Positions 4,277-60,793 of a DNA stretch of 64,000 bases are shown here, in pieces. Position 1 is the first letter of the stretch. Each line of letters starts with the position of its first letter. Source of the stretch: an uncultured Acidobacteriota bacterium (lineage in GTDB: Bacteria > Acidobacteriota > Vicinamibacteria > Vicinamibacterales > Fen-181); NCBI GenBank assembly GCA_963727765.1, contig CAVSGZ010000007.1, forward strand, positions 82,826-146,825, written 5' to 3'. The translations under genes were made by a program, and so were the position numbers. Under the pieces are notes generated by a model. It saw only the letters and a program-made list of their open reading frames with translations. It did no database searches and was not told the DNA's origin.

Positions 4277-5602
4277 ATGGCACACCGACGCGCCGCCCTC
4301 GACCTCGAGCCGGACCAGTTCAGGACGATCGAGAAGATCGACCTCGCGGCGATGCGCCGCCTGAACGTGATCCGGATCCTGGACGCCGTGCGGAGCGACG
4401 GCCCCATCTCCCGCGCGAGCCTGGCCAAGCGCTCGGGCCTCAGCCCGCCCGCCGTGTCGGCGCTGGTCGACGACCTGATCGCCGGACGCGGCCTGCTCCG
4501 CGAGGTGGGCCGCGACGTGTCGACCGGCGGCCGCCGCGCGAGGCTCGTCAGCTTCGCGGCCGACCACGGCTGCGTCGTCGGCGTCGACATCGGGTCCACG
4601 AGGCTCCGCTACGCGGTCGCGGACCTCGACGGCCGCCTGCTCGGCCGGCTCGAGGAGCCGACCGGGAAGCCGTCGCCCTCCGCGCTGATCACCCAGCTGA
4701 GCGGCGGGATCCGCCGCGTCCTCGACGGCGCGCGCCGAAGCGGCCCGCTGGCCGCGATTGGAATCGGCGCGCCGGGGATGACCGACGTGCGAAAGGGCGT
4801 CGTCATCGAGGCCGCGAACCTCCGCGGGTGGACCGACATCGCCCTGCGGGAGCGCGTCTCCCGGCGGTTCGGCGTGCCAGTGGCCGTCGACAACGACGTC
4901 AACATGGCCGCGCTCGGCGAGTACTGGGTGGGCTGCGCGAGGCGCGTGCCCAATTTCGTCTTCATCGCGCTCGGCCGGGGCGTCGGCGCCGGCATCATGA
5001 TCGACGGCCGGGTTCACCGCGGGAGCCAGTGGTATGCGGGAGAGATCAGCCACCTGCTGCTGGACTACACGCAGTGGCGGCGCAATTTCTGGCCGCAGGG
5101 CTACCTGGAGCGGCACGTCGGCGCCGCTGCCATCGCCGGCAGCTGGCGGCAGGCGGGGCGCGACGGGAGAGGGTCGGCCGCGAACATCGCGGCCCTCTTC
5201 GCCGCGGCGCGTCAGGGGGACGCGGCCGCCGCCGGGATCGTGAGCGAAGCGGCCACGGTCCTCGGCGTGGCGGTGGCGAACATCGTCACCACGCTGGACC
5301 CGGCCCTGGTCGTGTTCGGGGGCGGCCTCGGCCAGGTGGGCGAGCAGCTGTTGAAGCCGGTCCGGCAGGTGGTGGGGCGCATCGTCCCCAATCGGCCGGT
5401 GATCCGGATGACGGCACTCAAAGGGGACGCCCAGGTGTACGGCAGCGTGCTCACGGCGCTCAGATTGGCCAACCGCGTGCTGTACGACGAAATCCTGGCC
5501 GACCAGGATCCGTCGCGAAAGACCGGATCGCGGAACCGACGAGGCCGCAGGACGACTCCGGCCGGACGGGAACGGCCGGCGTCGCGCTCCGGGTCGAGGT
5601 GA
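4277..5602 (+). CDS. ROK-family transcriptional regulator (NagC/Mlc/XylR-like)
   Basis: N-terminal wHTH (ISRASLAKRSGLSPPAVSALVDDL) followed by a ROK sugar-kinase-like core (GVDIGSTRLRYAVADLDG, GIGAPG, DNDVNMAALGE). The C-terminal 40 aa form an Arg-rich tail. Confidence 0.85.
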   Translation: MAHRRAALDLEPDQFRTIEKIDLAAMRRLNVIRILDAVRSDGPISRASLAKRSGLSPPAVSALVDDLIAGRGLLREVGRDVSTGGRRARLVSFAADHGCVVGVDIGSTRLRYAVADLDGRLLGRLEEPTGKPSPSALITQLSGGIRRVLDGARRSGPLAAIGIGAPGMTDVRKGVVIEAANLRGWTDIALRERVSRRFGVPVAVDNDVNMAALGEYWVGCARRVPNFVFIALGRGVGAGIMIDGRVHRGSQWYAGEISHLLLDYTQWRRNFWPQGYLERHVGAAAIAGSWRQAGRDGRGSAANIAALFAAARQGDAAAAGIVSEAATVLGVAVANIVTTLDPALVVFGGGLGQVGEQLLKPVRQVVGRIVPNRPVIRMTALKGDAQVYGSVLTALRLANRVLYDEILADQDPSRKTGSRNRRGRRTTPAGRERPASRSGSR

Positions 5603-34369: not shown

Positions 34370-36669
34370 CCCATCACCTGGCCGGCCATCCGCATCATGT
34401 AGTCGTGGTCGATGTAGGGGTCGTCGTCTTTGTGCCGCTCCATCAGCGCGAGCCGCGTGGTGAGGAGGGCGTGAAGGTTGCGGCCGTGAATCAGCGGCGA
34501 CTCGCCGAGGTCGGTCGTCGCCATGAACTCCACTGGGCCGTCGATAAGCGATAGCAGGCGCCGCGTGTTCTCCATCTCGCGCTCGATCGCGTCGGCGAGG
34601 CGGGCGCAGTGACGGGCCTTCGACGTGTCATCGGCAGCCTCGAGCCACCCGTAGACGCTCGCCACCCAGGCGGCGAGGTTGCGCTGCGTTTCGAGCCAGC
34701 AGCGGAGCGCCTTCAAGCGCGCCAGTTGGTCGGTGATGACGCCCGGCTTGCCGAGTTCCGCGGCCGCGCCGGAGAGCGGCTCGAGACGCGCGATCGCCGC
34801 GTCGAGCGGAGCGAAGACGCGGGCATCCATCCGCTCCACGTCCCTGCTCGCCTGCGCCGGCTCGATCAGGCGGAACAGCACGTCGCGGCTCAGGTCCACG
34901 TTGTTCGGGTTGTGCGGGGTGGTGCACATGAAGCGCTCGTAGTACGCGCGCTCCTCCGCGGGGATCGCCTCGATGTTCGGCACCAGCGGTCGCGCCCAGA
35001 GGCGGTACCACGCAAAGCCGATCGTCGAGTAGAGCGTGCAGATGTTCGGAAACGAGAGGATCGCGTCCTCGGCGAGGCGCCACGCATCGATGAGCGCCGG
35101 GGCATGTTCGTCGCCAGCCCAGGCGCGCGCTAGGCGGTCGATTTCGGCGTCGATGTCCATCCCGGGATCGAACTCGAAACGGCGGAGGATCTCGTGGTTG
35201 ACGTTGAACGGCACGATTTCGGGCGGACACGTGCCGCCAATCTGGGCGAGCTCCCGCACGCCGTTTCGATGGAGCAGGGCGAGGCGCGTGTGGGTCAGCG
35301 TCGGGTACGGCACGCCCAAGAGCGGCGCGAACATCTGGTGCGGGCCGACCGCGGTGTAGAAGTGAGCGGCGGACGACCGACCGCGAAGATCCGCCATCAG
35401 GGTCCGCTCACGCTCGTCGAACGCCTGCTGAAAAATCGTGCCGCTGTTGATCGAATGCGAATCGGGGTAGCGCGGGTGCGTGTAGGGCATCTGCCAGCCC
35501 CGAGCCACCAGCGACGTCGTCTCCACCTCCACGCCGTCGCCGAGACCCTTCCAGAGCGTGTCGTGCTCGCCCATGAACGACTCGAGGCGAGTGATCACGC
35601 GGAAGCCGGGCGACACGGTGCGGGCTGCGTCGCGGAGCGTGCGGAAGAAGAGGAGCGCGTGCTCGCCGGCGACGCGGGCGATGGCGTCGTGGTCGCGCCA
35701 TTCGCGGACCATGTAGGGGCCGCCGTTGCGCCCGACGTAGAGCGACGTCGTGTGCTCGAAGCCCGAGCCGCTGTCGTTGGTCCAGATGGTCAGGAACCCG
35801 AGATCCGGGACTTCCGCGAGCAGCTTCGTGAGCATCTCCGCGTAGTGGTCGCGGACCAGCGGGTGGGCCAGTGTCATCGTGTAGCGCGGCTTGAACGAGC
35901 GGAAGGGATGGTCCACGCGGGCGCCGCGGAGCATCGGGTACCTGGCGAAGAACTCCTCCGGCACCGACCGCGGTTCGAAGCAGAGCAGGCCCGGGATGAG
36001 GCCGTACTTGCGGGCCAGGGCGGCGTTTCGCTTGAGGAACGCCAGGTTCGCCGACAGGTAGTAGGGAGGATAGAGCCCGCAGTTCAGCGAGGAGTCGATG
36101 AACTGATCGAGCGCGGGGCAATAGGTATAGAACATCGGGTACACCTCGCCCTTGGGTCCTGTCTCGAGGCTCATGGGATAGGCGAGGCCGTTCACCTCGA
36201 TGTGGGTGAAGCCTGACGTGGCCAGGCGCCGCACGTAGGTATCTCGATTGAGGCCGTGCTGGATGCGGGCCTCTTGCGTCAGGAAGATGTCGTAGCACGA
36301 GCGGTTCCAGCTGAACGTCGGTTGGACCAGCAGCGCGCCGCCGGCAGGAAGCGGTTGTTCGCCGAGGACGTCAAAGACGTACATGGCGGCACCGAACAGG
36401 CCGGGAGCGGCTGTCGACTCGAGCAGGCCGGAGCCGTCCTCGCCGAACTCGGCCCGCACCGGCGCCGGGCCGTCGGAGGCGGCGCCCTGCGGCGCGCCCG
36501 CGACCCTGATGCGGAAAACTCCGGATTCGGCTCTGCCGGCTGTGGAGCCGACGGAGACCGGAGCACCGCTTCTCCGCTGCAGGTCCTCCGCCACCGTGCG
36601 GCACACGAGCGGGCAGCCCTCGTCGAGCGTGATCTCGCGAATGCGAGCGAGTGCTTCTGCGACTGTCAT
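34366..36669 (-). CDS. 767-aa conserved-looking protein of unknown function (possible TIM-barrel glycan-active enzyme)
   Basis: Long uninterrupted ORF with balanced composition. Segments GFTHIEVNGL, LLCFEPRSVPEEFF and LTIWTNDSGSGFEH suggest beta/alpha-barrel strands ending in acidic residues. No signal peptide. Confidence 0.7.
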   Translation of the reverse strand: MTVAEALARIREITLDEGCPLVCRTVAEDLQRRSGAPVSVGSTAGRAESGVFRIRVAGAPQGAASDGPAPVRAEFGEDGSGLLESTAAPGLFGAAMYVFDVLGEQPLPAGGALLVQPTFSWNRSCYDIFLTQEARIQHGLNRDTYVRRLATSGFTHIEVNGLAYPMSLETGPKGEVYPMFYTYCPALDQFIDSSLNCGLYPPYYLSANLAFLKRNAALARKYGLIPGLLCFEPRSVPEEFFARYPMLRGARVDHPFRSFKPRYTMTLAHPLVRDHYAEMLTKLLAEVPDLGFLTIWTNDSGSGFEHTTSLYVGRNGGPYMVREWRDHDAIARVAGEHALLFFRTLRDAARTVSPGFRVITRLESFMGEHDTLWKGLGDGVEVETTSLVARGWQMPYTHPRYPDSHSINSGTIFQQAFDERERTLMADLRGRSSAAHFYTAVGPHQMFAPLLGVPYPTLTHTRLALLHRNGVRELAQIGGTCPPEIVPFNVNHEILRRFEFDPGMDIDAEIDRLARAWAGDEHAPALIDAWRLAEDAILSFPNICTLYSTIGFAWYRLWARPLVPNIEAIPAEERAYYERFMCTTPHNPNNVDLSRDVLFRLIEPAQASRDVERMDARVFAPLDAAIARLEPLSGAAAELGKPGVITDQLARLKALRCWLETQRNLAAWVASVYGWLEAADDTSKARHCARLADAIEREMENTRRLLSLIDGPVEFMATTDLGESPLIHGRNLHALLTTRLALMERHKDDDPYIDHDYMMRMAGQVMG

Positions 36670-36687: not shown

Positions 36688-36716
36688 CAGATAGCGCAGG
36701 GCTTCAGCCCTGCGCC
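36688..36716 (+). repeat. REP-like palindromic element, copy C
   Basis: CAGATAGCGCAGGGCTTCAGCCCTGCGCC, with stem GCGCAGGGC/GCCCTGCGC and loop TTCA. Nearly identical to the two copies at 45310-45387, in opposite genomic orientation. Contains the stop codon (36704-36706) of the PLP-enzyme gene. Confidence 0.75.
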
Positions 36717-37993
36717 TGGACCGCGACCTCCCTGATCAGCCTGTCCACTTCCGCGTCGGTGTTGCAGACGTGGAAGGACGCGCGAACGGCGTCGAGCCCC
36801 GCTTCGGTCACGCTGCGGACGCGGAGGCGTCGCCCGGTCAGCGCACCTGCCACCTGCCGGTTGTCGCGCCCGGGAATCCTGAACGTCACCATGGCCGATC
36901 GGGCCTCGGGCTCGGCCGGCGAGAGCAGGTCCACTGACTTCTGCGCCTGGAGCGCGCTGCGGAACCGCTCGGCCATCGCCTGGTTGTGCTGCCAGATCCT
37001 CGGCAGGCCGAGGGCCGCGACGAAGTCCATCGCCGATTCGATGCCGTAGATGAGCGCGGCGTTCTGTGTCCCGTACTCAAACCGCTGAGCCTCGGTTCGA
37101 AGCGTCAGCTTCCGTTCCGCCAGCGACGTCGCCTGGTCCGAGTAGGCGCCGAGGACGACCGACCCCACCTCCGGCAGGCGGTCCTTCCGGACGTACAGAA
37201 TGCCCGTCCGTTTCGGGCCCATCAGGAACTTGTGGCAGCTTGCGGCGTAGCAGTGTGCGCCGGTTGCCGCGATGTCGATCGGAAACTGCGCCAGCGACTG
37301 CGCGCCATCCAGGGCGAACCACACGCGCCGCTCGGCGGCGAGGCGGCCGATCTCGGCCACCGGCAGGATCTGCCCGGTCGTGCACGTCACGTGACTGACG
37401 AAGATCAGACGCGTGCGAGGCGTCAGCAGCGCGCGAATGCGTTCCACGCTGCCCGTCCGGGTGCCGAGGTCGGGCTCGAATGTCCGCACGACGATGCCGG
37501 CGGTGCTGATCTTGTGGAGCAGCGGGATGACCAGCGCCGGGTGTTCGTGCGTCGAGGTGATGACCTCGTCGCCAGCCTCGAGCGGCAGGCCGTTGAGGAC
37601 GATGTTGATGCCCTCGGTGGCCGTGCTCACCAGCGCGATTTCTCCTGCCGAGCACGAGGGCCCCAGCAGCGACGCGCACTTGCCGCGAATCCGCGTCCAG
37701 TCACTCTCGCTGTGGCCCGGGCTTGGAGACCGTTCCTCCCTGTCCATCTCCGACTTGACCCGGTCGCTGACCGCGCGCGGCGAGGCACCAAGTCCTGCGG
37801 TGTTGAAATACGCGTAGTCAGCCGGGAGTTGGAACTGCTGCCGAAGATCGCGCCACGGGTCTGACGTCGCCTGGAGGCGGTGCGCGACGTCACTCGCAAC
37901 AGTGCCGGCCGCATCGGGCGGGAGCATCAAGGCGCCGGCGGCAGCACCGAGGCCCGCCAGGAAGCCGCGTCGTTCGATCATCGTGTCCGCCAT
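36704..37993 (-). CDS. class V aminotransferase-fold PLP enzyme with twin-arginine (Tat) signal
   Basis: ATG 37993 within track ORF 36704..38284. MADTMIERRGFLAGLGAAAGALMLPP (RR motif). PLP-lysine motif ASCHKFLMGPKRTG. Cysteine-desulfurase/epimerase-like fold. Confidence 0.8.
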   Translation of the reverse strand: MADTMIERRGFLAGLGAAAGALMLPPDAAGTVASDVAHRLQATSDPWRDLRQQFQLPADYAYFNTAGLGASPRAVSDRVKSEMDREERSPSPGHSESDWTRIRGKCASLLGPSCSAGEIALVSTATEGINIVLNGLPLEAGDEVITSTHEHPALVIPLLHKISTAGIVVRTFEPDLGTRTGSVERIRALLTPRTRLIFVSHVTCTTGQILPVAEIGRLAAERRVWFALDGAQSLAQFPIDIAATGAHCYAASCHKFLMGPKRTGILYVRKDRLPEVGSVVLGAYSDQATSLAERKLTLRTEAQRFEYGTQNAALIYGIESAMDFVAALGLPRIWQHNQAMAERFRSALQAQKSVDLLSPAEPEARSAMVTFRIPGRDNRQVAGALTGRRLRVRSVTEAGLDAVRASFHVCNTDAEVDRLIREVAVQAQG

Positions 37994-39582
37994 CACTGAA
38001 GTGCGATCGTGAAGCCGGCGGTTCCGTCCACGTGAGTCTCGAAGTCGGCGTACCGGCTGGCCTCGACCACGGACTGGGCGAACGGCACATCGCGCGCGCC
38101 ATGCCGCACAGCGCAAACGTCTGAGCCGGCCGGGAGCAGCACGTGGAGCCGCACGTCGGCCGCGGCCGCCTCGACCTCGATATCGATCCGGTCGCCGGCG
38201 TGCCGGAACGAGTAGCCGATCCCCCGCCCCGACGCCGCGTAGCGGACCGACGCCTCCGCTTCGGAGAGGCCGGCGGCCACCCATCGCGGCGCCAGCGTCA
38301 CCGCGTCAAAACCGCAGCCGTCGTCCACGATCCCCGCGAGGCCTTCGACCAGCGCCCAGAGCATGGCGCTCGATCCCCACCCGTCGGTGGGCAGCGCCTC
38401 CGGGCTCGTGCTGGTCTCGACGCTGGCCGCGGCCCCGTCGGGGAAATACCACAGGTAGGTCTCGCCCTTCGGCGAGATGAGCCGGTGGTACTGCTCGAGG
38501 ATCTCGATGCCGTACGCTTCGAACCCGTGCTCGAAAGCCGCGCGGGCCAGCTCGCCGCCGACGAGCGGCATGATCCCGCCATTGCAGTAGGCCCCGGCGA
38601 CCAGGCGCTCGTCGCCGAAGATGCCGTCGGGAAACGGCGGGTCGATGGCAAACCACTCCGCGAACGCGCCGGTGGACTGGCGCCGGCGAAGGTACTCGCG
38701 GAGGATCGACGCCGCCTGCTCGTGGTCGGCCACCCCGCGGTTAACGTCCATCGGGTTGCTCAGGCTGAGCTGCGACGACTCGTCCACGCCCTCGATGGTG
38801 ACCGGCGTCAGCTTCACGAAGTGCGTGTAGAAGCGACCGTTCCAGCACGCCCGATTGAGGTTGGTCCGAATCTCGACCGCACGGTCTTCCCAATACGCGC
38901 CGCGCGCGGCGTCACCGAGGCGTCGGCAAAGCCTCGCCAACAGGCGATACGCCTCGTAGTAGCCGCTGTTGTCGCCGTGCATCAGGCCCCAGTACGTGTC
39001 GTCGGTAATCTGGAACTGCAGCCAGTCGTGCCGTCCTGCCGTGTACGCGAAATCCCAGGTGTCGATGGTGTAGGCCCGCTTCACGAGGCCGTGCGTCTCG
39101 TCCCAGTACCACGGGTGGTTCCGGATGTAGGCCATCGCCCGCTCGAGGCTGGGCAGCAGACCGCGAATCCAGGCGTCGTCGCCCGACGCCTGCCAGGCGA
39201 GGTAGGCGCCCTTGACGAAGCGATACTCGACGTCGGCCTCGACCGGGACGCGCACGTACTTCGTCCAGTTCTCGCGTTCGCTCGGCGGCTTCTCGGGAAA
39301 CGTCGTGTAGTAATCGAATACGCGACCCGTCGCGGCCTGCGTGTCGGCGAAGTGCTGCACGGCGCTCGTGAGGTCGGGCTCGAAGTACCGGAACCCGCGC
39401 ATCATGTCGCTGTGGTCGCGGATCCAGATCGACTTGGCGTCGGGCGTGCGGTAGCCGCGGATCCGCCGGCCGTCGATCGTCAGGTCCAGCCGGTCGTGCT
39501 CCAGGAACGCCCGGACCGCGGGGTAGAGGTCGTCGAACGCCGGCCGCCCGGTTCTGATCGAGACCTCACTTGCTTGGCGCAT
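37993..39582 (-). CDS. (alpha/alpha)6-barrel glycoside-hydrolase-like protein (family not assignable by eye)
   Basis: 529 aa, no signal peptide. ...AYCNGGIMPLVGGELARAAFEHG... and ...TDGWGSSAMLWALVEGLAGI... are typical of six-hairpin glycosidases. Its stop shares one base with the downstream start. Confidence 0.6.
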   Translation of the reverse strand: MRQASEVSIRTGRPAFDDLYPAVRAFLEHDRLDLTIDGRRIRGYRTPDAKSIWIRDHSDMMRGFRYFEPDLTSAVQHFADTQAATGRVFDYYTTFPEKPPSERENWTKYVRVPVEADVEYRFVKGAYLAWQASGDDAWIRGLLPSLERAMAYIRNHPWYWDETHGLVKRAYTIDTWDFAYTAGRHDWLQFQITDDTYWGLMHGDNSGYYEAYRLLARLCRRLGDAARGAYWEDRAVEIRTNLNRACWNGRFYTHFVKLTPVTIEGVDESSQLSLSNPMDVNRGVADHEQAASILREYLRRRQSTGAFAEWFAIDPPFPDGIFGDERLVAGAYCNGGIMPLVGGELARAAFEHGFEAYGIEILEQYHRLISPKGETYLWYFPDGAAASVETSTSPEALPTDGWGSSAMLWALVEGLAGIVDDGCGFDAVTLAPRWVAAGLSEAEASVRYAASGRGIGYSFRHAGDRIDIEVEAAAADVRLHVLLPAGSDVCAVRHGARDVPFAQSVVEASRYADFETHVDGTAGFTIALQ

Positions 39583-41989: not shown

Positions 41990-43000
41990 TCACCTCTCTC
42001 CATCGAACGCCTGCCAGCAGCTGAACACCTCGAGCACGTTTTCCGGACGGGCGCCGGGTCCGAACTCGCACTGGGCGATGACACCGCCGTTGGCGTAGAG
42101 GTACCGCTTCACGTCGCCGACCGCGCGCCTGACGTCCTCGAGCGATCCAAACGACAGGACCGCCTGCCGGTCGATCTCCCCCCAGAAGGTAATCTGTCCG
42201 CGGAACCGACTGAGGGCCTCGGCGCCCATGCAGGCCACCTGGCTGTTGATCGCGTGGACGCCGACCTCGATGAGATCGGGCAGGATGTCCACGATCCAGC
42301 CGTCGGAATGCATGAAGACGAACTTGCCGGCCCGCCGCGCAACGTCGCAGTACTGCCTGTAGATCGGTTTGTAGAGCTCGCGCCAGATAGCCGGCGACAC
42401 CAGCATGCGGTCCTGGGCGCCCCAGTCGTCCATCAGCACGATCGCATCGACATCGGTCGCCGCCCACGCTTCGACCTCGGCGAGGTAGTGATGGTGCAGG
42501 CGCTCGAACAAGTCCATGAAGCCGGGCGGACGGGTGAACAGGTCCACCAGGGCCCCTTCCATGGTCCTCAGAAAGCACAGCCGTTCGAACGGCCTGACCA
42601 GCGTGCCCGCCAGCACGAATTGGTCCGTCGAACGGCAGAACGCGTTCACCGCTCCGCGATCGATGGCCAGTGTGCACGCAGGCGTCTCGAAGCGCTCGAG
42701 GTCGCTCCATTCCCTGATCAACGGTTCGCGGACGATGCCGATCACCCCGCCGTGGACGTTGTCGAACCGGCAGCCCCACTCGTCGACGTAGAGGCCCTTC
42801 TGGTAGCGCTGGCCCACGACCGGCAGCGGCCGCAGGTAGAGGCCGGGCGACGTGACGATGTCGTCCGGAAATTCGGTCCTGAGACGGGTGACCTCCTCGG
42901 GGTAGCGCTCCTCGGCCCATGGCAGCACCCAAGCCTGGCGCGGCACGGCCGGCGGGGAAGCGAATTCGAGCGACTGTCGCACCAGGTCACGCCGCCTCAT
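41990..43000 (-). CDS. URO-D superfamily protein, paralogue 2
   Basis: 336 aa. ...DAIVLMDDWGAQDRMLVSPAIWRELYKPIYRQYCDVARRAGKFVFMHSDGWIVDILPDLIEVGVHAINS... (URO-D/MtaA-like). ATGA overlap with the upstream gene. Confidence 0.65.
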   Translation of the reverse strand: MRRRDLVRQSLEFASPPAVPRQAWVLPWAEERYPEEVTRLRTEFPDDIVTSPGLYLRPLPVVGQRYQKGLYVDEWGCRFDNVHGGVIGIVREPLIREWSDLERFETPACTLAIDRGAVNAFCRSTDQFVLAGTLVRPFERLCFLRTMEGALVDLFTRPPGFMDLFERLHHHYLAEVEAWAATDVDAIVLMDDWGAQDRMLVSPAIWRELYKPIYRQYCDVARRAGKFVFMHSDGWIVDILPDLIEVGVHAINSQVACMGAEALSRFRGQITFWGEIDRQAVLSFGSLEDVRRAVGDVKRYLYANGGVIAQCEFGPGARPENVLEVFSCWQAFDGER

Positions 43001-44251
43001 CGACTCCTCCCGCCCGCACGCCCAGGACCGCCGCGGGGATACGCGTCGTAGCCGTCGAGATCCACCGGCACACCGGCTCGCGCCCAGCTGATGTCCGCCT
43101 CGGACGGGAGCAGGTGCCGCTCATGGCATCGGCTCAGCGTCTCGTCCAATTCCGGCACGAAGCGTCGCCCCGCCTGGTCGTCGCTGACCACGACCGCATC
43201 CGGGAACGAGATCGGCTCGCACACCGATTCGTGCATGCCGTTGACGACCAGCGTCTGGGCCAGGGCCGCCTCCGGACCGCAGACGACCGTCGCCGGAGAT
43301 CGTATCGCGCTGACGGCATCGAACAGCTTCTTGAACTGCGGGCTGTCGTCTGGGGCGCCGTAGCGCTTGACGTGACCCGCCGCGTCGCGTGCGATGATAC
43401 CTCCCGCCATCGCGTCGAACGTCACCGATGCCGTTTCGAACTCGAGCGTGAAGCGCGGCTCGATGGCGGTCTCGGTGACGTGCGAGGCGTACATCAGGAC
43501 TTCCAGCCCGGTATCGGTCGTCACTCGACAGGCCGCGGTATCGCACGATTCGATTGGGTAGGCACGGTACAACTCGGCCTGCACGGTGCGCGGCCTGGCG
43601 CTCAGGTGGATGTCCGGGCCGCCGAGATAGAGCAGGTTGTGGAGAAAGTGGGCCATCGCGTTGTTCGCCGGTCCGTCGAGCACCCACCTGCCCGTCGCCG
43701 GGTCCCTCAGCCGTCCTGCCCACTGGTTCCGCTGATAGTACGACAGGTGACGTGGCCAGCAGCACAGTGTCGAGAAGCGGGCGGGGCGACCGAACAGCCC
43801 GGCGAGGATGTCTCGCTTCAGGGCCTGAATGGCCGTCGAGTACCGACCACTGGTAGCCGACCATCACGAAGCGGCCCGAGCGATCGCGCGTCGAGATCAG
43901 TTGCGTCGCCTCCTGCACGGTCGCGCCGAGCGGCTTGTCGCAGAGCACGTGAGACCCGTGCTCGAGCGCGGTGCAGGACTGGGGGACGTGATGTTGAATC
44001 GGGGACACGATGACCGCGAGGTCGGCCTCGTGTCCGGCCGCATAGAAATCGGCCACCTCGCCGAAGACCGGCACGCCTCGCGCCTCCACCCACGACCAGG
44101 CCCGCGACGCTCGCGCCTCCGGGTCCACCACTCCGGCCAGAATCGCCCGCTCCGCCGGAACCTCCTCGAGGAGCGTCTGCAGGTAGTAGTGGCCGTAGCC
44201 GCCAATCGCGACCATGAGCACCCGGACGGGGTTTTCCTTCCCGAGCATCAT
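42997..44251 (-). pseudogene. Gfo/Idh/MocA-family oxidoreductase, single-nt frameshift as read
   Basis: N-part from track ORF 43121..44251 (VLMVAIGGYGHYY, VLCDKPLG). C-part in the frame of ORF 42997..43683. Joins as ...FVMVGYQWS/YSTAIQALKRDILAGLFGRPARFSTLCCWPRHLSYYQRNQWAGRLRDPATGRWVLDGPANN.... One extra base near 43843-43846. Confidence 0.75.
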
Positions 44252-46767
44252 CGCGCGGCCCCCACGCGCTCGAGCAGGTCCGCGTTGCTGACGGCGTGCG
44301 TGGCGAAGTCCACGAGCAGCGTGCGGAGTTCGAATGGCCCGAGCGCCACGGGGAACTCGACGCCAAGCGCGGGGATGCGTACCCGCGTGTCGCGGGCTGT
44401 GCCCGTCGGCTCGAACAGCCGCAGCACGAGCGCACGGCCGTCATCGCTCAGCTTCAGCGCGGACAGCCTCGCCACGTCGTCGCCGAGGACGACACCGGAG
44501 AGCGCCGTCGGCCCGCCGCCCGACGGAAACGCGCACAGCGCCATCAGCTCCTCGGTCCTGACCGCTGCCTCGCGATCGACCGCCCGCAGGCGGTCAGCCC
44601 CCGGGCCGGCATTCAGCCAGAACCTGAACACGTGCTCGCCCTGGTCCTCCCGCGGCTCGAACCGGTCCTGTCTGACAATCGGCGTGACATCGTCCACGGG
44701 GTGGCCGGCGTAAGCCGGGGCGCGCAGGAGTGACAGCCGGACCTCGCCATCAGCCACGTCGAAGCCGTAGGTGGAGTCGTTGACGATCGTCAGCGCGCGC
44801 CCGCCATTGGGCGACAGGACCGCTAGCCAGCGGTGGCCGACCGCTTCTTCACCGCGGGGGCTCACGACCTCGACACCGTAGGCCGTCTGCGTCCGCACCT
44901 CGCCGCCAGCGAGTGTCGTCGGTAGCGCGAGCTTCAGCATCGTGTCCCGCTCGAACCACGACACGCGGACCTCGACCTCGATTTCGGTCCCGGTCGTCGG
45001 AACCATGTACCGGATCACGACCGCCGAGCGGCCGCAGGAGAGCAGCGACTCGATTGTGGTTCGGACCGGGCCGCTCTCGATCACACGAACCGGCGTCAGT
45101 TCGGCAGCCGCCACGCCGGCAAACGCCGCGGCCTCCGCCGCCGACATCAGCGTGAACTCGCCGACGACGTCACGGAACGCCCGCGTCTTCATGCCCCAGG
45201 GATCGGCAGTGTCCCTGACGAGCAGCGGGCGGAAGGCCGGGCCGCGCAGGTACTCCACGCCGTCGACCGCGAACCGCGAGAGCAGGCCGGACGATGACGA
45301 GATGTGAACGTGGGGCGCAGGGCTGAAACCCTGCGGTATCTGGTGATTCGGGCCGTGAGGCGCAGGGCTAAAGCCCTGCGCTATCTCGCGATCCTCGAGG
45401 CGACAGGAGAAGCGGGTGGTGCACGACGGCCGCAGGGACGCCCTGAACACGACGTGCTTCCGCTGGTCGTTCTGGATGTTGCAGCTCTCTTTCTCGAGCT
45501 GGAGAGGAACGTCATGTCCCTGCGCGTCGGTGATGCGCGGCTGCCAGAACACCTTCGGGTTGAAGTTCGGCTCCGGCGGCTGGAACTCGCAGGAGACGAC
45601 GTGGGTGACCGGGAAGGGGTGATGGTTGTGAACGAAGAGCGGGAGCTCGCCGTCGGCGGCGGCAGGCTGTCCACTGAGAAGCGCGAAGAACGCCCTGGCG
45701 CGCAGGCGGCTGACGATCTCGGCACCGTGGCCGAGCCGGTCGAGGGCCTGACGTTCGACTTCGCGAACCGCCTCGCCCGGGAGCACGTCGTGGAACTGAC
45801 AATAGAGCAGGTCTTCGAGGCTCGACCGCAGTTCGGCGCCCGGATAGGGAAGAAGACCCTGGACGGCCGCGTTGGCCAGCATCGACTCGGTGACGAACAG
45901 CAGGCGCTCGAGCCTGGCGTGCGCGCGCTTGACCGTCGCCATCGACGAATAGCACCCAACGGCCCACGGATTGAGGTCGTGGGCGTAGCGGGGAAGTCCG
46001 GCGTCGTCCCTCATGGCGTCGAAGTAGTCCTCTGGCCGCCCATGCTGGACGCGGAAACCGGAAATCACTCCCGGAGTGATTATCGCGGCCAGCGCTCGGA
46101 GGTCACGGCGTGAAGGTCCGCCGCCGTGGTTTCCGACACCCCAGAGCACCATCCCGCGTGGCTGGTCCTGGTGCGCGTCGAGCCAGCGCCGGACCTTGTC
46201 GGCTGCCTTGCCCAGCTCCGAATTGTAGTGCTCGGACGAGCGGTGAGCGAGGACGGTGGATCCGTCAAGTCCCACCCACACGAAGTCGTCCGACGGGAGC
46301 TCGAGCCAGCCGCGGTCGGGGCGGCAGAAGAGGTAGCCGTCGTAGCCCGACTTCGCCAGGATCTGCACGAGCCCGCGCGTGTGGCCGAAAGAGTCGAAGT
46401 TGGCGGCCACACGCGGTTCGACGCCGAACTTCTCCATGAAATAGCGCTTGCCGACGAGGATCTGCCGAACCAGCGACTCACCGGACGGGATGTTGCAGTC
46501 GGGCTGGAGGTACCAGCCGCCCATCACGTGCCAGCGCCCTTCCCGGACCAATTGCTGGATCCCGGCGAAGAGCGAGGGCTCGTACTGCTCGACCCACGAG
46601 TAGAGCAGGGCTTCGTTGTGGCAGAACACGAAGCCGTCGAACTCCCGGCACAGTTCGGCCGCGGCGCGGAAGGTGCCGAGCGTCGCGGCCAGGCCTTCCT
46701 CCCACGGCCACAGCCAGACGGGATCGATGTGGGAGTTGCAGACGAGGAAGACGGTCTTGTCAGCCAT
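44248..46767 (-). CDS. GH38-family alpha-mannosidase
   Basis: ATG 46767 within track ORF 44248..47322. MADKTVFLVCNSHIDPVWLWPWEEG..., GGWYLQPDCNIPSGESLVRQ, NFDSFGH. 839 aa. The upstream 185 codons of the track ORF are Arg/Gly junk overlapping the next gene. Confidence 0.85.
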   Translation of the reverse strand: MADKTVFLVCNSHIDPVWLWPWEEGLAATLGTFRAAAELCREFDGFVFCHNEALLYSWVEQYEPSLFAGIQQLVREGRWHVMGGWYLQPDCNIPSGESLVRQILVGKRYFMEKFGVEPRVAANFDSFGHTRGLVQILAKSGYDGYLFCRPDRGWLELPSDDFVWVGLDGSTVLAHRSSEHYNSELGKAADKVRRWLDAHQDQPRGMVLWGVGNHGGGPSRRDLRALAAIITPGVISGFRVQHGRPEDYFDAMRDDAGLPRYAHDLNPWAVGCYSSMATVKRAHARLERLLFVTESMLANAAVQGLLPYPGAELRSSLEDLLYCQFHDVLPGEAVREVERQALDRLGHGAEIVSRLRARAFFALLSGQPAAADGELPLFVHNHHPFPVTHVVSCEFQPPEPNFNPKVFWQPRITDAQGHDVPLQLEKESCNIQNDQRKHVVFRASLRPSCTTRFSCRLEDREIAQGFSPAPHGPNHQIPQGFSPAPHVHISSSSGLLSRFAVDGVEYLRGPAFRPLLVRDTADPWGMKTRAFRDVVGEFTLMSAAEAAAFAGVAAAELTPVRVIESGPVRTTIESLLSCGRSAVVIRYMVPTTGTEIEVEVRVSWFERDTMLKLALPTTLAGGEVRTQTAYGVEVVSPRGEEAVGHRWLAVLSPNGGRALTIVNDSTYGFDVADGEVRLSLLRAPAYAGHPVDDVTPIVRQDRFEPREDQGEHVFRFWLNAGPGADRLRAVDREAAVRTEELMALCAFPSGGGPTALSGVVLGDDVARLSALKLSDDGRALVLRLFEPTGTARDTRVRIPALGVEFPVALGPFELRTLLVDFATHAVSNADLLERVGAAR
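45310..45387 (-). repeat. two tandem REP-like palindromic elements (copies A and B) inside the GH38 coding sequence, in frame
   Basis: 78 nt (26 codons), read as EIAQGFSPAPHGPNHQIPQGFSPAPH. Each unit carries the GCGCAGGG(C/T)-TTYA-GCCCTGCG hairpin seen at 36688-36716. Confidence 0.75.
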
Positions 46768-46772
46768 CGGCG

Positions 46773-48800
46773 TCAACCACGCGGAAGCACGATCTCGACC
46801 TCGACTTCGTCGCCGCTCGCCGAGGCGTTGGGCACGGCGACTTCGCCGGAGACACGCTCGGCCACAACCCGACCGCCCACCTTGACCCGGGCCACCGGCG
46901 CTCGCGCGGCCTCGCGGCTGACCTTCACGTCCAGCGTCCCCGAGCCGTAGGGCATGCGCCCTGCTGCGTAATCGAGGCCGGGCAGCAGCGCCGGCCTGAC
47001 GGTCGGGCCGTCGGCCCCGGCACGCACGCCGAGGATCTGCTCGACCAGCAGGGCCAGCATCTCGGACCACGTCCAGGGAATGACGCCGACCTGGGGATAC
47101 GGCGGCGAGGATCGAGGACCGTAGAACTCGAACCACGAGCCCGCCGGCGCACCAGTGGCTCGGTCGAGCCACCGGAGGACCCGCCATGCCCGGTCCGGCA
47201 CGCCGCATTCCACCGCCGCCCGTGCCACGAAGATCGAGGCGAAGGGCCAACCGCCGGGCGAATCGGGCTCGGACGACGCATGGTAGCGGCCGTAGCCTCC
47301 GTCTTCCCACTCCTGATTCCACAACGGTTCGACGCTGTCGAGCGTCCGGCGAGCGAGCGGGGAGTCCGGAGCGACGAAACCCGTTACGATCGGCATTGTG
47401 ACGCAGGTGTCCGGATTCAGCCAGTGAGCGCCCGGTCGCAGCAGCGGCACACCCGCGGGCATCAGAGAACCCGGGACCGGCTCGATGCGGTCCTGCACGG
47501 TGCCGTCCAGGTTCTTGCGCTTCACGAGTACGCCATCGACGACCATGCCGTACCTCGGGTCCGTCAGCGTCGTGGCGCGGAGGCGCTCGGCATTCGACGC
47601 CCAGCGTGCCGCTCGCTCGGGCTGGCTCATCCTGACCGCGAGCCTCGAGGCCGCGCGCAGCCCGATCGACACGTACACCTGGTGGACCAGCTCCAGGCCG
47701 GGCCGGATGCCATGAATCCGGTGCCGTTCCCAGAACTCCCGCGCGTTCGAGAGCAGCCCGCTCTCCGGGTGGGCGAACTCCTCACGCAGCGGGTACTCCG
47801 CGAGGGCTTCGATCCGGGGCCAATGCGCCGAAACGAGCGAAAGGTCGCCGGTCCACCGGACGTACTGCTCCAGCGCGTTCAGGAGGACGCCGTTCTGATC
47901 GAGCTCGGCTTCGTCCGGCCCGCGCACCTCGCTCGAGTCCATCGCGCCGCCCTCGGGCGTGATGAACTCGCGGAGGAGACGGTCGAGCAGGCAGGCGGCG
48001 CCTTCGCGGTCGCCCGCCATCAGGAACCCGGTCGAGACAAACGCCTGGTCCCGAACCCACTCCCGGTTGTACTGCCAGATGCTCGCGTCCATCCGCCCGG
48101 CCGCCGATTTCGCAGCCGCCAACTGGCAGTGGCTGATGCGCGCGAAGCGATCGAGCAGCGGGTCACCGAACGTAAAGCGCGACGCACGCCCCCAGCGTTC
48201 GCGCGCCGCATCCGCGACAGGGCAGTTCTCGACATGCACCTCGACCCGCTCGGCCCCGGGAACGATCTCGTAGACGAAGCACGCCAGGGCGGCGCCGGCC
48301 TCCCTCTCGATGGCGGCCGTGCTGCCGCCGGCGCTGGTGCTCGCCCGGACCGGTCCGCAACCGGAGGAACAACGGACGCGAACCTCCCGGGCCAGCCGTG
48401 GCGAATTGGTGTCCGGGCAGAAGAACAGTTCGGAGACCTCGCCGCCGGACCAGCTCCAGACAGCCTCGATGGCGGGCACGCCGTCATGGGTCGTCCAGGT
48501 CACGCGTGTGGCGTTCGCCCTCGCACGATGTGACTCGCCGTTGGCCTCCACGCGGACCAGGGTGGCGTCAAGCCCCCGAGCCAGGTCCATCGTTAACGCT
48601 TCGCGCTTCTTCCCAAGCCGGTCGGGATCCATCAACAGCAGGCCCAGTGGCGTGCCCTCTTCGGACGGTGCCCACTGGACGGCCGCCTGGATGTGGCCGT
48701 TTCCGAGGAAGAAGTAGGAGACCTCCCGCAGCCGCGTCCGGACGTCCGGGTGGCCGAGGTTCGGGTCGTCGTCGTAGACGTGCTCTGACGGGTTGATCAT
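46773..48800 (-). CDS. GH15-like (glucoamylase/glucodextranase superfamily) glycoside hydrolase
   Basis: 675 aa. Beta-sandwich N-domain plus an (alpha/alpha)6 domain. WQYNREWVRDQAF and ELDQNGVLLNALEQYVRWTGD resemble GH15 motifs. Confidence 0.65.
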   Translation of the reverse strand: MINPSEHVYDDDPNLGHPDVRTRLREVSYFFLGNGHIQAAVQWAPSEEGTPLGLLLMDPDRLGKKREALTMDLARGLDATLVRVEANGESHRARANATRVTWTTHDGVPAIEAVWSWSGGEVSELFFCPDTNSPRLAREVRVRCSSGCGPVRASTSAGGSTAAIEREAGAALACFVYEIVPGAERVEVHVENCPVADAARERWGRASRFTFGDPLLDRFARISHCQLAAAKSAAGRMDASIWQYNREWVRDQAFVSTGFLMAGDREGAACLLDRLLREFITPEGGAMDSSEVRGPDEAELDQNGVLLNALEQYVRWTGDLSLVSAHWPRIEALAEYPLREEFAHPESGLLSNAREFWERHRIHGIRPGLELVHQVYVSIGLRAASRLAVRMSQPERAARWASNAERLRATTLTDPRYGMVVDGVLVKRKNLDGTVQDRIEPVPGSLMPAGVPLLRPGAHWLNPDTCVTMPIVTGFVAPDSPLARRTLDSVEPLWNQEWEDGGYGRYHASSEPDSPGGWPFASIFVARAAVECGVPDRAWRVLRWLDRATGAPAGSWFEFYGPRSSPPYPQVGVIPWTWSEMLALLVEQILGVRAGADGPTVRPALLPGLDYAAGRMPYGSGTLDVKVSREAARAPVARVKVGGRVVAERVSGEVAVPNASASGDEVEVEIVLPRG

Positions 48801-58529: not shown

Positions 58530-58563
58530 GCGGGCGGCGGAAGGCGGGAGGCGGAGACAACGA

Positions 58564-58593
58564 GGGCCGGCGAGGAGTACTCCCCGCCGGCCC
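58564..58593. terminator. strong GC hairpin between convergent genes
   Basis: GGGCCGGCGaGGA-GTAC-TCCcCGCCGGCCC, 35 nt after the stop at 58529. Confidence 0.5.
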
Positions 58594-58690
58594 CTTGAGC
58601 CTTGAGCCTCTTGGCTTGAGCCCTGCCCGCCTTCGCGCGAAGCGCTTCGGCGGGTCCGCCATAGCCTTGGCGGAGGCGGAAGCCCTGAGC
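58594..58690. repeat. intergenic GC-rich element with short tandem CCTTGAG units and nested palindromes
   Basis: CTTGAGCCTTGAGCCTCTTGGCTTGAGCC, then CCCGCC-TTCGCGCGAAGCGCTTC-GGCGGG (contains the palindromes CTTCGCGCGAAG and GAAGCGCTTC), then CCGCCA-tagcct-TGGCGG. Confidence 0.55.
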
Positions 58691-60793
58691 CTACATTACC
58701 GCCACCGGCGGCGCGGGTTCGTCGGCGGCGCCCGCCTTCCGCAACGGCACCGCGACCAGGTACCACACCAGGAACGCCAGCACCGGGATGGCCATCCATG
58801 GGGCGTAGGTGTCGAACCCCGAGACGGACCAGAACTGGTGTCCGGAGCGGAAGCCGACCACGGCCGCGATGAACAGGCCGATGAGCGCTTCACCGGCAAT
58901 CAGCCCCGACGCGGCCAGCACTCCTGCGTTCTCGACTCGCGCCTTCTGGGCCGCGTTGTATCCGCGCTTGTCTCGGAACTTGTCCACCATGCCGCGCACC
59001 ATGCCGCCGACGAAGATGGCCGCCGTCGTCTCGAGCGGCAGATACATGCCGACCGAAAAGAGCATGGGGCTCCTGACCTTGATCAGGATGAACGAGATCC
59101 CCATCACGATCCCGACCAGGACGAGCGGCCACGCCATTTCTCCGCCGACGATGCCGTTGGAGAGGGCCGCCATCAGCCCGGCCTGCGGCGCCGGGTAGGT
59201 TTTGCCGCCGAAGCCGCCGAGCAGCGGGCCGAACTGCGCCACGTCGGAGGTGTGCATCAGGTAGAGCGGGAAGAACATCACCGCGCCGGCGCAGATGACG
59301 CCCATGACGTCGCCCACCTGCATCTTCCACGGCGTGCCGCCCAGGATGTGGCCGACCTTGAGATCCTGCAGCATCTCGCCTGCCACGGCCGACGAGACGC
59401 AGCCGATGGCCGCGACCGCCAGCACCGCGAGCACGCCCTCTTCCCCCTTCGCGCCGACGATGACCATCGTCAGGGCGGCGACGACGACGGTGGCCAGCGT
59501 CAGGCCCGACAGCGGGTTGTTCGACGACCCGATCATCCCGACGAGGTTGCCGGAGACCGCGGCGAAGAAGAACCCGGTGATGAACATGACGATCGCTGCG
59601 ACGCACGCCGCCAGCAGCGACTGCGTGAAGTAGAAGTACAGCGTCACCATCAGGGCCACGATGACCGCGACGACGAGGCCGACGATGCGCAGCGACAGGT
59701 CCTGCTGCGTCCGCCGCGTCGCCGCCTGGACCGCCGCCGTCTTCTTCACGTCCGCGATGCCGCGCTTGACGCCGAGGATCAGGTTCTTCCTCATCTTGAA
59801 GAGCGTGTAGCAGGCCCCGACGAGCATGCCGCCCACGGCGATCGGCCGCACGATGAACCGGTACAGATGCGCGACGATGCCCGCCCACGCCGCGGCTTCG
59901 TTGCCGTTGTTCAGCGCCATGTACTGATCGATGAGCGTGGGTCCCACGAAGTAGACGAGCAGCGGAACGAACAGCCCCCACGCCAGAAGTCCGCCGGCGA
60001 AGTTCAGTGCGCCCAGCTCGGGCCCGATGATGTAGCCGACGCCCAGGTAGGCGGGCGTGACGGCCGGGGCCGAGAAACTGGTGATGCCGCCGGTGGGCAC
60101 CTTGACGGACCCGCCGGTGAGGCCCAACCTGACGAAGCTCTGCTTGAGCGTGCCGACGCGGACCGTGAAGTCGTTCGACGAGCGGAAGATCCCAAACCCG
60201 TCCAGCAGCTTGACGACCGCGCCGACGCCCATCGCGCGGAACAGTTGCAGCGCCGCGTCGGCCCCCTTCTGGCCCGCCTTGTGAATCTCGCTGGCGGCCA
60301 CCGATTCGGGGAAGGGAAGCCCCGGGTCCTCGACCATGACGCGCCGGAGGATCGTGACGAACATGATCCCCAGGATCCCGCCGAGAATCATCAGGCAGGA
60401 GGCCAGGATGTACTCCTGGAACATGTGCGCCGAGTCGAACTTCCACAACTTCAGGATGACGAACGCCGGGATGGTGAAGATGGCGCCTGCGGCGACCGAT
60501 TCACCGATCGACCCGACGGTTCGGGCGAAATTCTCTTCGAGCACGCTGCCCTTGAAGAGCCTCAGCACGGCCATCCCGATGACGGCCGCCGGGTAAGTGG
60601 CGGCGATCGTCATGCCGGCCCGGAGGCCGAGGTAGGCGTTGGCCGCGCCGAGCACGACACACATGACGAGACCGAGGACGAGCGCGCGGAACGTGAACTC
60701 GTTCATCGTCGTGTCGTCAGGCACGAGCGGCTGGAACCCGGTCTTCTGCTGCTGGTCGGAAGGTGTCTGGTTCATGAGGGCGCATCTTAGCAT
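58691..60793 (-). CDS. OPT-superfamily oligopeptide transporter
   Basis: 700 aa, many TM helices. ...EFTFRALVLGLVMCVVLGAANAYLGLRAGMTIAATYPAAVIGMAVLR... is typical of bacterial OPT proteins. Alternative start at ATG 60775. Confidence 0.85.
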   Translation of the reverse strand: MLRCALMNQTPSDQQQKTGFQPLVPDDTTMNEFTFRALVLGLVMCVVLGAANAYLGLRAGMTIAATYPAAVIGMAVLRLFKGSVLEENFARTVGSIGESVAAGAIFTIPAFVILKLWKFDSAHMFQEYILASCLMILGGILGIMFVTILRRVMVEDPGLPFPESVAASEIHKAGQKGADAALQLFRAMGVGAVVKLLDGFGIFRSSNDFTVRVGTLKQSFVRLGLTGGSVKVPTGGITSFSAPAVTPAYLGVGYIIGPELGALNFAGGLLAWGLFVPLLVYFVGPTLIDQYMALNNGNEAAAWAGIVAHLYRFIVRPIAVGGMLVGACYTLFKMRKNLILGVKRGIADVKKTAAVQAATRRTQQDLSLRIVGLVVAVIVALMVTLYFYFTQSLLAACVAAIVMFITGFFFAAVSGNLVGMIGSSNNPLSGLTLATVVVAALTMVIVGAKGEEGVLAVLAVAAIGCVSSAVAGEMLQDLKVGHILGGTPWKMQVGDVMGVICAGAVMFFPLYLMHTSDVAQFGPLLGGFGGKTYPAPQAGLMAALSNGIVGGEMAWPLVLVGIVMGISFILIKVRSPMLFSVGMYLPLETTAAIFVGGMVRGMVDKFRDKRGYNAAQKARVENAGVLAASGLIAGEALIGLFIAAVVGFRSGHQFWSVSGFDTYAPWMAIPVLAFLVWYLVAVPLRKAGAADEPAPPVAVM

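Follow-up and report, generated by a model that had tools for sequence, protein, structure and literature searches.

We analysed a 64-kb stretch of DNA from an uncultured Acidobacteriota bacterium (contig CAVSGZ010000007.1 of the assembly GCA_963727765.1), hereafter the window, to whose positions all coordinates refer unless another locus (L) is named. Within it, two short palindromes of the repetitive extragenic palindrome (REP) type lie in tandem inside the coding sequence of a glycoside hydrolase family 38 (GH38) alpha-mannosidase, whose gene occupies 44248-46767 on the minus strand and encodes 839 aa beginning with MADKTVF. The codons E461-H486 (EIAQGFSPAPHGPNHQIPQGFSPAPH) correspond exactly to 45310-45387, and the reading frame is kept. 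The original prediction described these 78 nt (26 codons) as two tandem REP-like palindromes in frame, each hairpin being followed by TATCT. Both the sequence reading and the codon map agree with this description, TATCT being seen on the plus strand at 45337 and 45382.

Each unit consists of the palindrome GCGCAGGGCT-NN-AGCCCTGCGC followed by TATCTG-NN-GAT. Unit 1, the 5′ one in the mRNA sense, spans 45354-45392 (minus strand). Its core, GCGCAGGGCTAAAGCCCTGCGC on the plus strand (45360-45381), is a perfect palindrome of 10+10 bp with a 2-nt centre, which matches the family core at 22 of 22 positions and is followed on the same strand by the tag TATCTC (45382-45387) and the extension GCGAT (45388-45392). 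Read in the mRNA sense as GAUCGCGAGAUA-GCGCAGGGCUUUAGCCCUGCGC-C, unit 1 encodes R460-H471 (REIAQGFSPAPH). Unit 2, the 3′ one, spans 45309-45347 (minus strand); its core, GCGCAGGGCTGAAACCCTGCGG on the plus strand (45315-45336), has two mismatches to the pattern GCGCAGGGCTNNAGCCCTGCGC and pairs over 8-9 bp, and the tag TATCTG (45337-45342) and the extension GTGAT (45343-45347) come after it. This unit codes for Q476-H486 (QIPQGFSPAPH) and leads into a beta-strand, HVH (487-489). The units repeat in direct orientation, with a start-to-start spacing of 45 nt and 85% identity over 39 nt, and their 22-nt cores have the form of a REP, i.e., a short (20-40 nt) GC-rich palindrome able to form a stable stem-loop. 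With up to three mismatches allowed, the pattern was matched three times in the window versus 0.06 times expected, and none of 100 shuffles reached three matches. These were the only three copies of the REP in the 64 kb, and a de novo list of the perfect hairpins of the window contained no other repeated palindrome family.

The third copy, at 36688-36716 (plus strand), lies between two minus-strand genes and reads tag first, CAGATA-GCGCAGGGCTTCAGCCCTGCGC-C, with cagata at 36688-36693 and a perfect core at 36694-36715 in the orientation opposite to that of the doublet. The same element is indeed present there, as had been predicted, but it is not simply intergenic, since it overlaps the end of an open reading frame (ORF), 36704-38284 (minus strand), and supplies its stop: the TGA of the hairpin loop (TCA on the plus strand, 36704-36706) is the termination codon of this ORF for a Tat-signal, aminotransferase-like protein, whose last residues, ...VQAQG*, are coded by the REP. 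This protein may owe its C-terminus to the REP, the native one having been replaced or shortened. The copy ends 19 nt ahead of the ATG of the next gene at 36669.

The GH38 gene starts with the ATG at 46767, 6 nt past the end of the upstream gene for a 675-aa protein, exactly as in the orthologous loci; the longer listed ORF, 44248-47322, was rejected as the extent of the gene, being an over-extension typical of DNA with 68-70% GC. The product matches Glyco_hydro_38N, Alpha-mann_mid and Glyco_hydro_38C above the Pfam cut-offs (191.1, 49.7 and 56.4 bits, respectively) and retains all invariant columns of the 108-sequence alignment, as it must by definition. Solved GH38 structures matched it at E 7e-54 in a PDB sequence search, none of them aligning across the REP-coded loop. 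The gene stands in the middle of an operon with the order SSF transporter, AP_endonuc_2, 675-aa protein, GH38, GFO_IDH_MocA, URO-D-like, 805-aa and 529-aa proteins, which is syntenic with relatives at 82-90% nucleotide identity. Frame, alignment invariants and operon synteny all agree with the earlier claim that the insertion preserves the frame and that GH38-like sequence continues on both sides, and the gene carrying the REPs looks intact.

Judged by their sequence, the elements in the GH38 gene belong to a REP family. A scan of contigs for the exact core, with one genome per species, revealed it in at least 107 stretches, mostly from three long-read Acidobacteriota metagenome-assembled genomes (MAGs; MFD05942.bin.1.436, MFD01872.bin.1.18 and MFD05684.bin.2.83) and from other Vicinamibacteria/Acidobacteria MAGs; among the matches listed there were a few unrelated, chance-like ones in Pseudomonas and others. 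The motif is thus massively repeated elsewhere, in the genomes of related soil Acidobacteriota. In MFD05942, MFD01872 and the window the flank is asymmetric and conserved, GCGCAGGGCTGAAGCCCTGCGC-TATCTG-NN-GATC, and the tag reads (C)AGATA-GCGC, i.e., ATAG. In MFD05684 the flank is ...GCGC-TACG, which on the other strand gives GTAG-CGCAGGGC, the classic REP head, and the tag is CGTA-GCGC (GTAG). Over the family copies, TATC was counted 115 times and TAC 44 times. When copies formed close pairs, 39 of the 47 pairs were inverted dimers with inward-facing tags (mostly 42-53 nt), three had the tags outward, and only five were direct, four of these with a spacing of 43-45 nt (two in L052, one in L090 and the one in the window) and the fifth with 90 nt. 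The GH38 doublet belongs to this direct minority.

As a rule, copies of the family lie outside genes. A coding-like spanning ORF, defined as open, with a GC content at third codon positions above 0.8 and at least 60 codons on each side, was found for 6 of the 187 evaluable copies (five sites), the remaining 181 copies, about 97%, being non-coding. The claim that an in-frame intragenic REP is uncommon holds when counted per copy, at about 3% for this family, but such cases are already documented (PMC3733652, PMC10969869). Three of the four other intragenic sites sit in inter-domain linkers, and the fourth (L019) has no Pfam match. A single REP-like copy at L002 4032-4057 lies in a MiaB/RimO-type methylthiotransferase between UPF0004 and Radical_SAM, and another, at L093 5394-5419, in an AMP-binding/alpha-beta-hydrolase fusion between AMP-binding_C and the hydrolase domain; both are read in another frame (...RRALALR... 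and ...RRAGLEP...). At L006 6140-6203 (MFD05942.bin.1.436) an inverted REP dimer is inserted in frame in an ABC exporter, between ABC_membrane and ABC_tran, and encodes ...ASAQGSSPALSGDGQIAQAFRPAP...; the loop of its stop-prone unit is TCAA and not TGAA as in the family, so that no in-frame TGA arises. A search of a set of 5.8 billion proteins with a 44-aa synthetic triple-unit peptide gave no candidates.

Furthermore, related genomes encode RAYT transposases. The first, at L091 7224-7670, came up as a weak tblastn match to an E. coli RAYT sequence. It scores 24.6 bits against PF01797, for which the cut-off is 23, and its homologues carry the source annotation "REP element-mobilizing transposase RayT". 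The second, at L195 1201-1653 (P0132), comes from the same assembly as P0002, the closest genomic orthologue of the GH38 protein. The two are flanked by their own REP arrays, GTAGCGCCGGCCTCCTGGCCGGCC (L091 6960-7800) and GGTGGGGCAGGCGYCTCGCCTGCCC (L195 700-1700). Since both carry REP families other than that in the GH38 gene, these related genomes host at least three REP families, and the element studied here is a REP of a multi-family REP/RAYT genome.

Comparison of the GH38 genes clearly showed REP-derived sequence at this position in orthologues with as little as 76% identity, so that its acquisition would predate their divergence and would have been followed by repeated turnover. The same 26 residues are not carried by REP-free orthologues, being absent from the distant ones at 68% identity or less; in the group at 66-68% identity, candidate remnants of a REP (PLSPNPGIE; L119) gave too weak a signal to be called. 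The orthologue P0001 (87% aa identity) bears two direct units, the first with a widened loop and the second perfect. P0002 (86%; MAG MFD01872.bin.1.18, L108) bears one unit, which has the left flank of window unit 1 and the right flank of unit 2. In P0005, P0004 and P0012 the stems, of the GCACAGGGCT..AGCCCTGTGC type, are mutated but still pair; a search for further copies of these stem variants was uninformative, none being present in the fetched DNA, which came mostly from other genomes. P0006, P0009 and P0011 retain decayed remnants coding QDFSPAPH, and P0007 is a REP-poor orthologue. The two-unit layout is common to the window, P0001, P0004 and P0012, and the divergent first unit is of the type CAGGGCGCTCA...GCCCTG. 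A metagenome scan added only four new close loci, namely L115 and L127 (with the same loop sequence, of the P0003 type), L116 and L118. When the window was aligned with L108 by megablast, about 13.7 kb matched at 88-90% identity in two pieces meeting at 45325/45371, i.e., at the REP site. By these sequence comparisons, the site is an old and unstable one and does not reflect a recent event in this genome.

The layout of the doublet itself might be explained by a single insertion with subsequent tandem duplication in situ, through 45-nt slippage or unequal recombination, which we regard as possible but somewhat doubtful. The direct orientation of the units, their 45-nt spacing and their 85% identity would fit such a history, as would the direct arrays of 43-45 nt period elsewhere in the family (L052, L090), and the single unit of P0002 between the outer flanks of the two window units fits recombinational loss or gain. 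At the same time, the layout shared with P0001, P0004 and P0012 makes any duplication old, window unit 1, which agrees with the family core at 22/22 positions, has the look of a refreshed or re-inserted unit and not of a copy of unit 2, and the full family tag and extension present on each unit fit independent insertion as well. Such a duplication concerns only the history of the site and is compatible with the explanation preferred below.

That the doublet is an artefact of sequencing or of repeat-induced mis-joining during assembly is, in our opinion, extremely improbable. A probable 1-nt error or frameshift does lie close by (an extra G at ~43842 in the GFO_IDH_MocA gene), but the reading frame is intact across the REP site, and REP-derived sequence is found at the same codon positions in independent ENA, NCBI and JGI assemblies.

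The site has also accommodated other elements. The hairpin loop of P0002 (L108 7402-7495) is split by a 72-nt in-frame insert, itself palindromic, which lengthens the REP stem, giving 22-nt arms that are 91% complementary around the inner palindrome. This nested insert represents a second repeat family, a GC-rich composite with relatives in L002, in L029 and at ~58.62-58.69 kb of the window, where the intergenic region 58560-58700 holds a copy (...GCCCGCCTTCGCGCGAAGCGCTTCGGCGGG...). In P0013 (L112 2413-2522) and P0010 (L116 ~4400-4470), the same GH38 loop contains yet another, AT-richer palindromic cluster, GAAAATGGYGACASTTCCC, with the unit GAAAATGGYGACASTTCCCRTTTC; in P0013 the cluster comprises three units of 22-24 nt, two direct and one inverted, and codes for GDTS-type peptides. 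Within the fetched DNA, the GH38 sites of L112 and L116 were the only places with this unit, apart from one match with two mismatches in L095. P0013 itself has 1193 aa, GH38 being fused in it to the product of the GFO_IDH_MocA gene downstream. The same few codons hold three palindromic repeat types, the GCGCAGGGC REP, the ~70-nt second family and the GAAAATGGYGACASTTCCC cluster. One might imagine the GH38 linker as a long-lived landing pad, where hairpin DNA draws further hairpin-targeting elements within a coding sequence, an idea that we find rather unlikely. If insertion were structure-directed, or if the stem were selected as an intra-operon RNA/DNA signal, the locus would provide a natural series for studying REP/RAYT target choice and the absorption of such elements by a protein.

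At the protein level, the REP-coded residues fall between two invariant anchors, C455 and G494, which are separated by 38 aa in the window, 26-29 of them REP-coded. In distant homologues this interval is uniform, with a mode of 35 aa (58 of 95 sequences), and in the close clade it is hypervariable, ranging from 28 to 47 aa. Given 38 aa versus the mode of 35, the REP-coded residues would replace the native loop rather than add 26 residues to it. The predicted 26-aa insertion in a loop is thus supported as to its place, a hypervariable site of low model confidence, but not as to a net gain of 26 aa. The AlphaFold2 model of the host protein, built with the 108-sequence alignment, has a mean pLDDT (predicted local distance difference test) of 90.8 and a pTM (predicted template modelling score) of 0.93. 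The lowest block values are those of residues 461-470 (56) and 471-480 (65), pLDDT dropping below 50 at 466-473. In the model, the REP-coded segment (aa 460-488) forms a coil between the strands 449-461 and 487-489, and profile coordinates would place it just before the N-terminal edge of Glyco_hydro_38C. Most likely, as far as the model can tell, the REP-coded loop is a disordered and structurally permissive linker.

We also considered whether the REP-coded peptide was recruited for the function of GH38, e.g., as a flexible Pro-rich linker or an oligomer contact. The motif SPAPH(V/L)H is kept across the close clade, and residues 481-490, which enter the beta-strand, are modelled confidently (block mean 94). 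Among orthologues of 76-87% identity the rest of the segment is hypervariable, its length (28-47 aa) as much as its sequence, the pLDDT falls below 50 in its middle, and distant homologues bear unrelated sequence at this loop, all of which makes recruitment very improbable.

We consider it likely that the doublet derives from a selfish element of the REP/REPIN type, which was mobilised by a RAYT, landed in a permissive linker and was tolerated there. According to the established REP/RAYT biology (PMC3116915, PMC3733652), such a REP would be non-autonomous, its hairpin and tag being recognised on single-stranded DNA by a RAYT, an IS200-like Y1/HUH transposase. The ancestor of the GH38 clade would have gained REP sequence in the linker ahead of Glyco_hydro_38C, where it could survive selection only if it was free of stops, divisible by three in length and positioned in a permissive loop. 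The tag-first orientation is open in the frame used (GCG CAG GGC TTC AGC CCT GCG, giving IAQGFSPAP), and the reverse orientation puts the loop TGA in frame, as is seen at the 36.7-kb copy, where this TGA stops the ORF, and in L006, where it is mutated to TCA. The in-frame TGA of the opposite orientation may explain why the doublet is direct and not the usual inverted dimer. Later on, the site would have evolved like DNA free of constraint and prone to recombination: the number of units would have been changed by recombination, and the second repeat family would have entered the hairpin loop of one orthologue. The hairpins would have decayed in some lineages and in others either stayed paired or been refreshed, for which gene conversion by REPs elsewhere in the genome or templated quasi-palindrome correction may be responsible.

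Several observations weigh against this explanation. A cognate RAYT flanked by the GH38-type REP was not found, both RAYTs adjoining other families, and tblastn across the window and the fetched loci gave no further RAYT. The tag here is ATAG and not the canonical GTAG, and the copy number was measured in related genomes, the genome of the window being seen as three copies in 64 kb. The net length of the loop is close to that of REP-free homologues, so that a simple insertion would need a concomitant loss of native sequence. Near-perfect units are present in the window, P0001 and P0002 though the flanking DNA differs by 10-12%. Finally, pairing is kept in 85% of the cells of eight orthologous units versus 79% in shuffles, three stem pairs are changed on both sides (G-C to A-U), and the pairing and covariation scores were each reached by 1 of 500 shuffles, with the reservation that related sequences can exceed the shuffles of the counting tool without any structure. 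The kept pairing and the near-perfect units could mean that the hairpin is under selection and not neutral; the modest pairing signal fits gene conversion from the REP pool or templated quasi-palindrome correction equally well.

If selected, the hairpin pair would act in cis, as a barrier to mRNA decay or an RNase site uncoupling the upstream genes (for the transporter, the isomerase and the 675-aa protein) from the downstream ones, or as a translational pause at a domain boundary. In E. coli, intergenic REPs stabilise the upstream mRNA; roles of this kind are reviewed in PMC3733652. The predicted RNA structure is strong: a folding energy of -46.6 kcal/mol (z -4.1) was obtained for the 111-nt region, whose two hairpins form separately or pair with each other, and the single-unit hairpins reach -19.8 kcal/mol (z -5.6) for unit 1 and -14.4 kcal/mol (z -4.7) for unit 2. 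The compensatory stem changes mentioned above and the coincidence of the hairpins with a domain boundary also speak for such a role. At the same time, the folds of orthologous units range from -19.8 kcal/mol in P0001, -18.7 in P0005, -11.8 in P0004 and -11.4 in P0012 to -7.9 in P0011, where another fold is formed, and -2.9 in P0006 (z +0.3), i.e., the hairpin is gone in the last two, with the GH38 ORF intact in both and the neighbouring operon genes of P0006 in unchanged order. The content of the site differs radically across orthologues, given the other element in P0013 and P0010 and the nested insert in P0002, and the covariation comes from eight related sequences, for which quasi-palindrome correction or gene conversion could account as well. 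A 3′ end within the translated ORF would, moreover, give a non-stop mRNA.

No terminator-like site was detected on either strand of 44200-47000, the terminator/promoter scan being empty at the REP site; the hairpins are followed by CUCACGG and CCCACGU, without a T/U run. In Rfam, no family reached the threshold for the REP region. The best match to unit 1 (extending over 45361-45392), RF01687 Acido-Lenti-1, scored 22.2 bits versus the gathering threshold of 37, with its second hairpin deleted, and was rejected; no Acido-Lenti-1 match was obtained in eight REP-rich loci. The two are alike in having a GC-rich hairpin followed by GCUA and in occurring in Acidobacteria, which is probably a chance likeness of GC-rich hairpins. 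Rfam matches to microRNA hairpins were spurious. Several orthologues do without the hairpin, which leaves a dedicated role of the RNA possible but without support, and we rate it as unlikely; for the role in mRNA processing or stability proposed in the original prediction, no positive evidence was obtained. Most likely, the tolerated REP has no role at present, and any effect on the mRNA is incidental.

The tolerated in-frame insertion of a REP is already known, and the GH38 doublet reveals no new mechanism. The survey of GTAG/CGTC REPs by Di Nocera, De Gregorio and Rocco (2013, BMC Genomics 14:522; PMC3733652) describes intragenic copies in numerous bacteria, the majority being dimers or groups that code for 20-30 aa, a range which the 26 aa found here fit. 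As described there, those REPs resemble the present family in being tagged, GC-rich, high-copy and mainly intergenic palindromes, with occasional copies inside genes for known proteins and an overlap with ORF ends like that of the 36.7-kb copy. They differ in that the host here is an Acidobacteriota bacterium of the Vicinamibacteria type, the tag is ATAG and not GTAG, the doublet is direct and not inverted, and the host gene codes for a glycoside hydrolase, whereas DNA-repair genes are stressed in that survey. Acidobacteria are mentioned once in the main text of the survey, and the passages concerned deal only with the terminal inverted repeats of Koribacter versatilis.

The family also bears resemblance to the REPIN/RAYT system (Bertels and Rainey 2011, PLoS Genet 7:e1002132; PMC3116915), being organised mostly as inverted dimers of 42-53 nt in genomes that have several REP families and, among relatives, Y1 RAYTs with flanking REP arrays; unlike in that system, a RAYT flanked by the GH38-type REP was not found in the window or the fetched loci. 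Being direct and intragenic, the GH38 doublet has probably lost its mobility and persists as a remnant. The classic in-frame palindromic insertions are the Rickettsia palindromic elements (RPEs) of Ogata et al. (2000), which are reviewed in PMC10969869 and cited in PMC3733652. Just as described there for RPEs, selfish palindromes are inserted here in frame at fold-compatible positions of genes that stay functional, selection filtering both frame and site. In those accounts, however, RPEs are ~100-150 bp long and encode a conserved 30-50-aa peptide, whereas the unit here measures 33-45 nt; neither the sequences nor the bacterial lineages are related, and no RAYT link is established for RPE-1. 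The GH38 doublet works like an RPE without being a member of that group.

New here are only the lineage, the REP family with its ATAG/GTAG head, the identity of the host gene and the re-use of the linker along a series of orthologues. The locus provides a well-resolved case of a REP entering a protein in the Acidobacteriota, a phylum for which few descriptions of REP/RAYT systems exist, and illustrates that such sites persist and turn over in the long term through unit gain and loss, nested insertion and decay. Software for gene calling and homology detection should be prepared, in these genomes, for low-complexity-like loops coded by REPs and for stop codons supplied by REP loops, and alignment breaks at such REP sites should not be equated with assembly errors.

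Two downstream genes of the operon deserve mention. The GFO_IDH_MocA-like gene directly downstream of GH38 (42998-44251, minus strand) has a frameshift at ~43842 relative to its orthologue in L108: tblastn against L108 switches frame between aa 136 and 137, and the window has an extra G (tggtcGGtactc versus tggtcGtactc), reflecting either a sequencing error or a pseudogenised oxidoreductase. The URO-D-like gene encodes 336 aa in L108 and L109 and is represented by two pieces (218 and 107 aa) at L110 9782-10793, the P0006 locus, which suggests a frameshift or an assembly error there.

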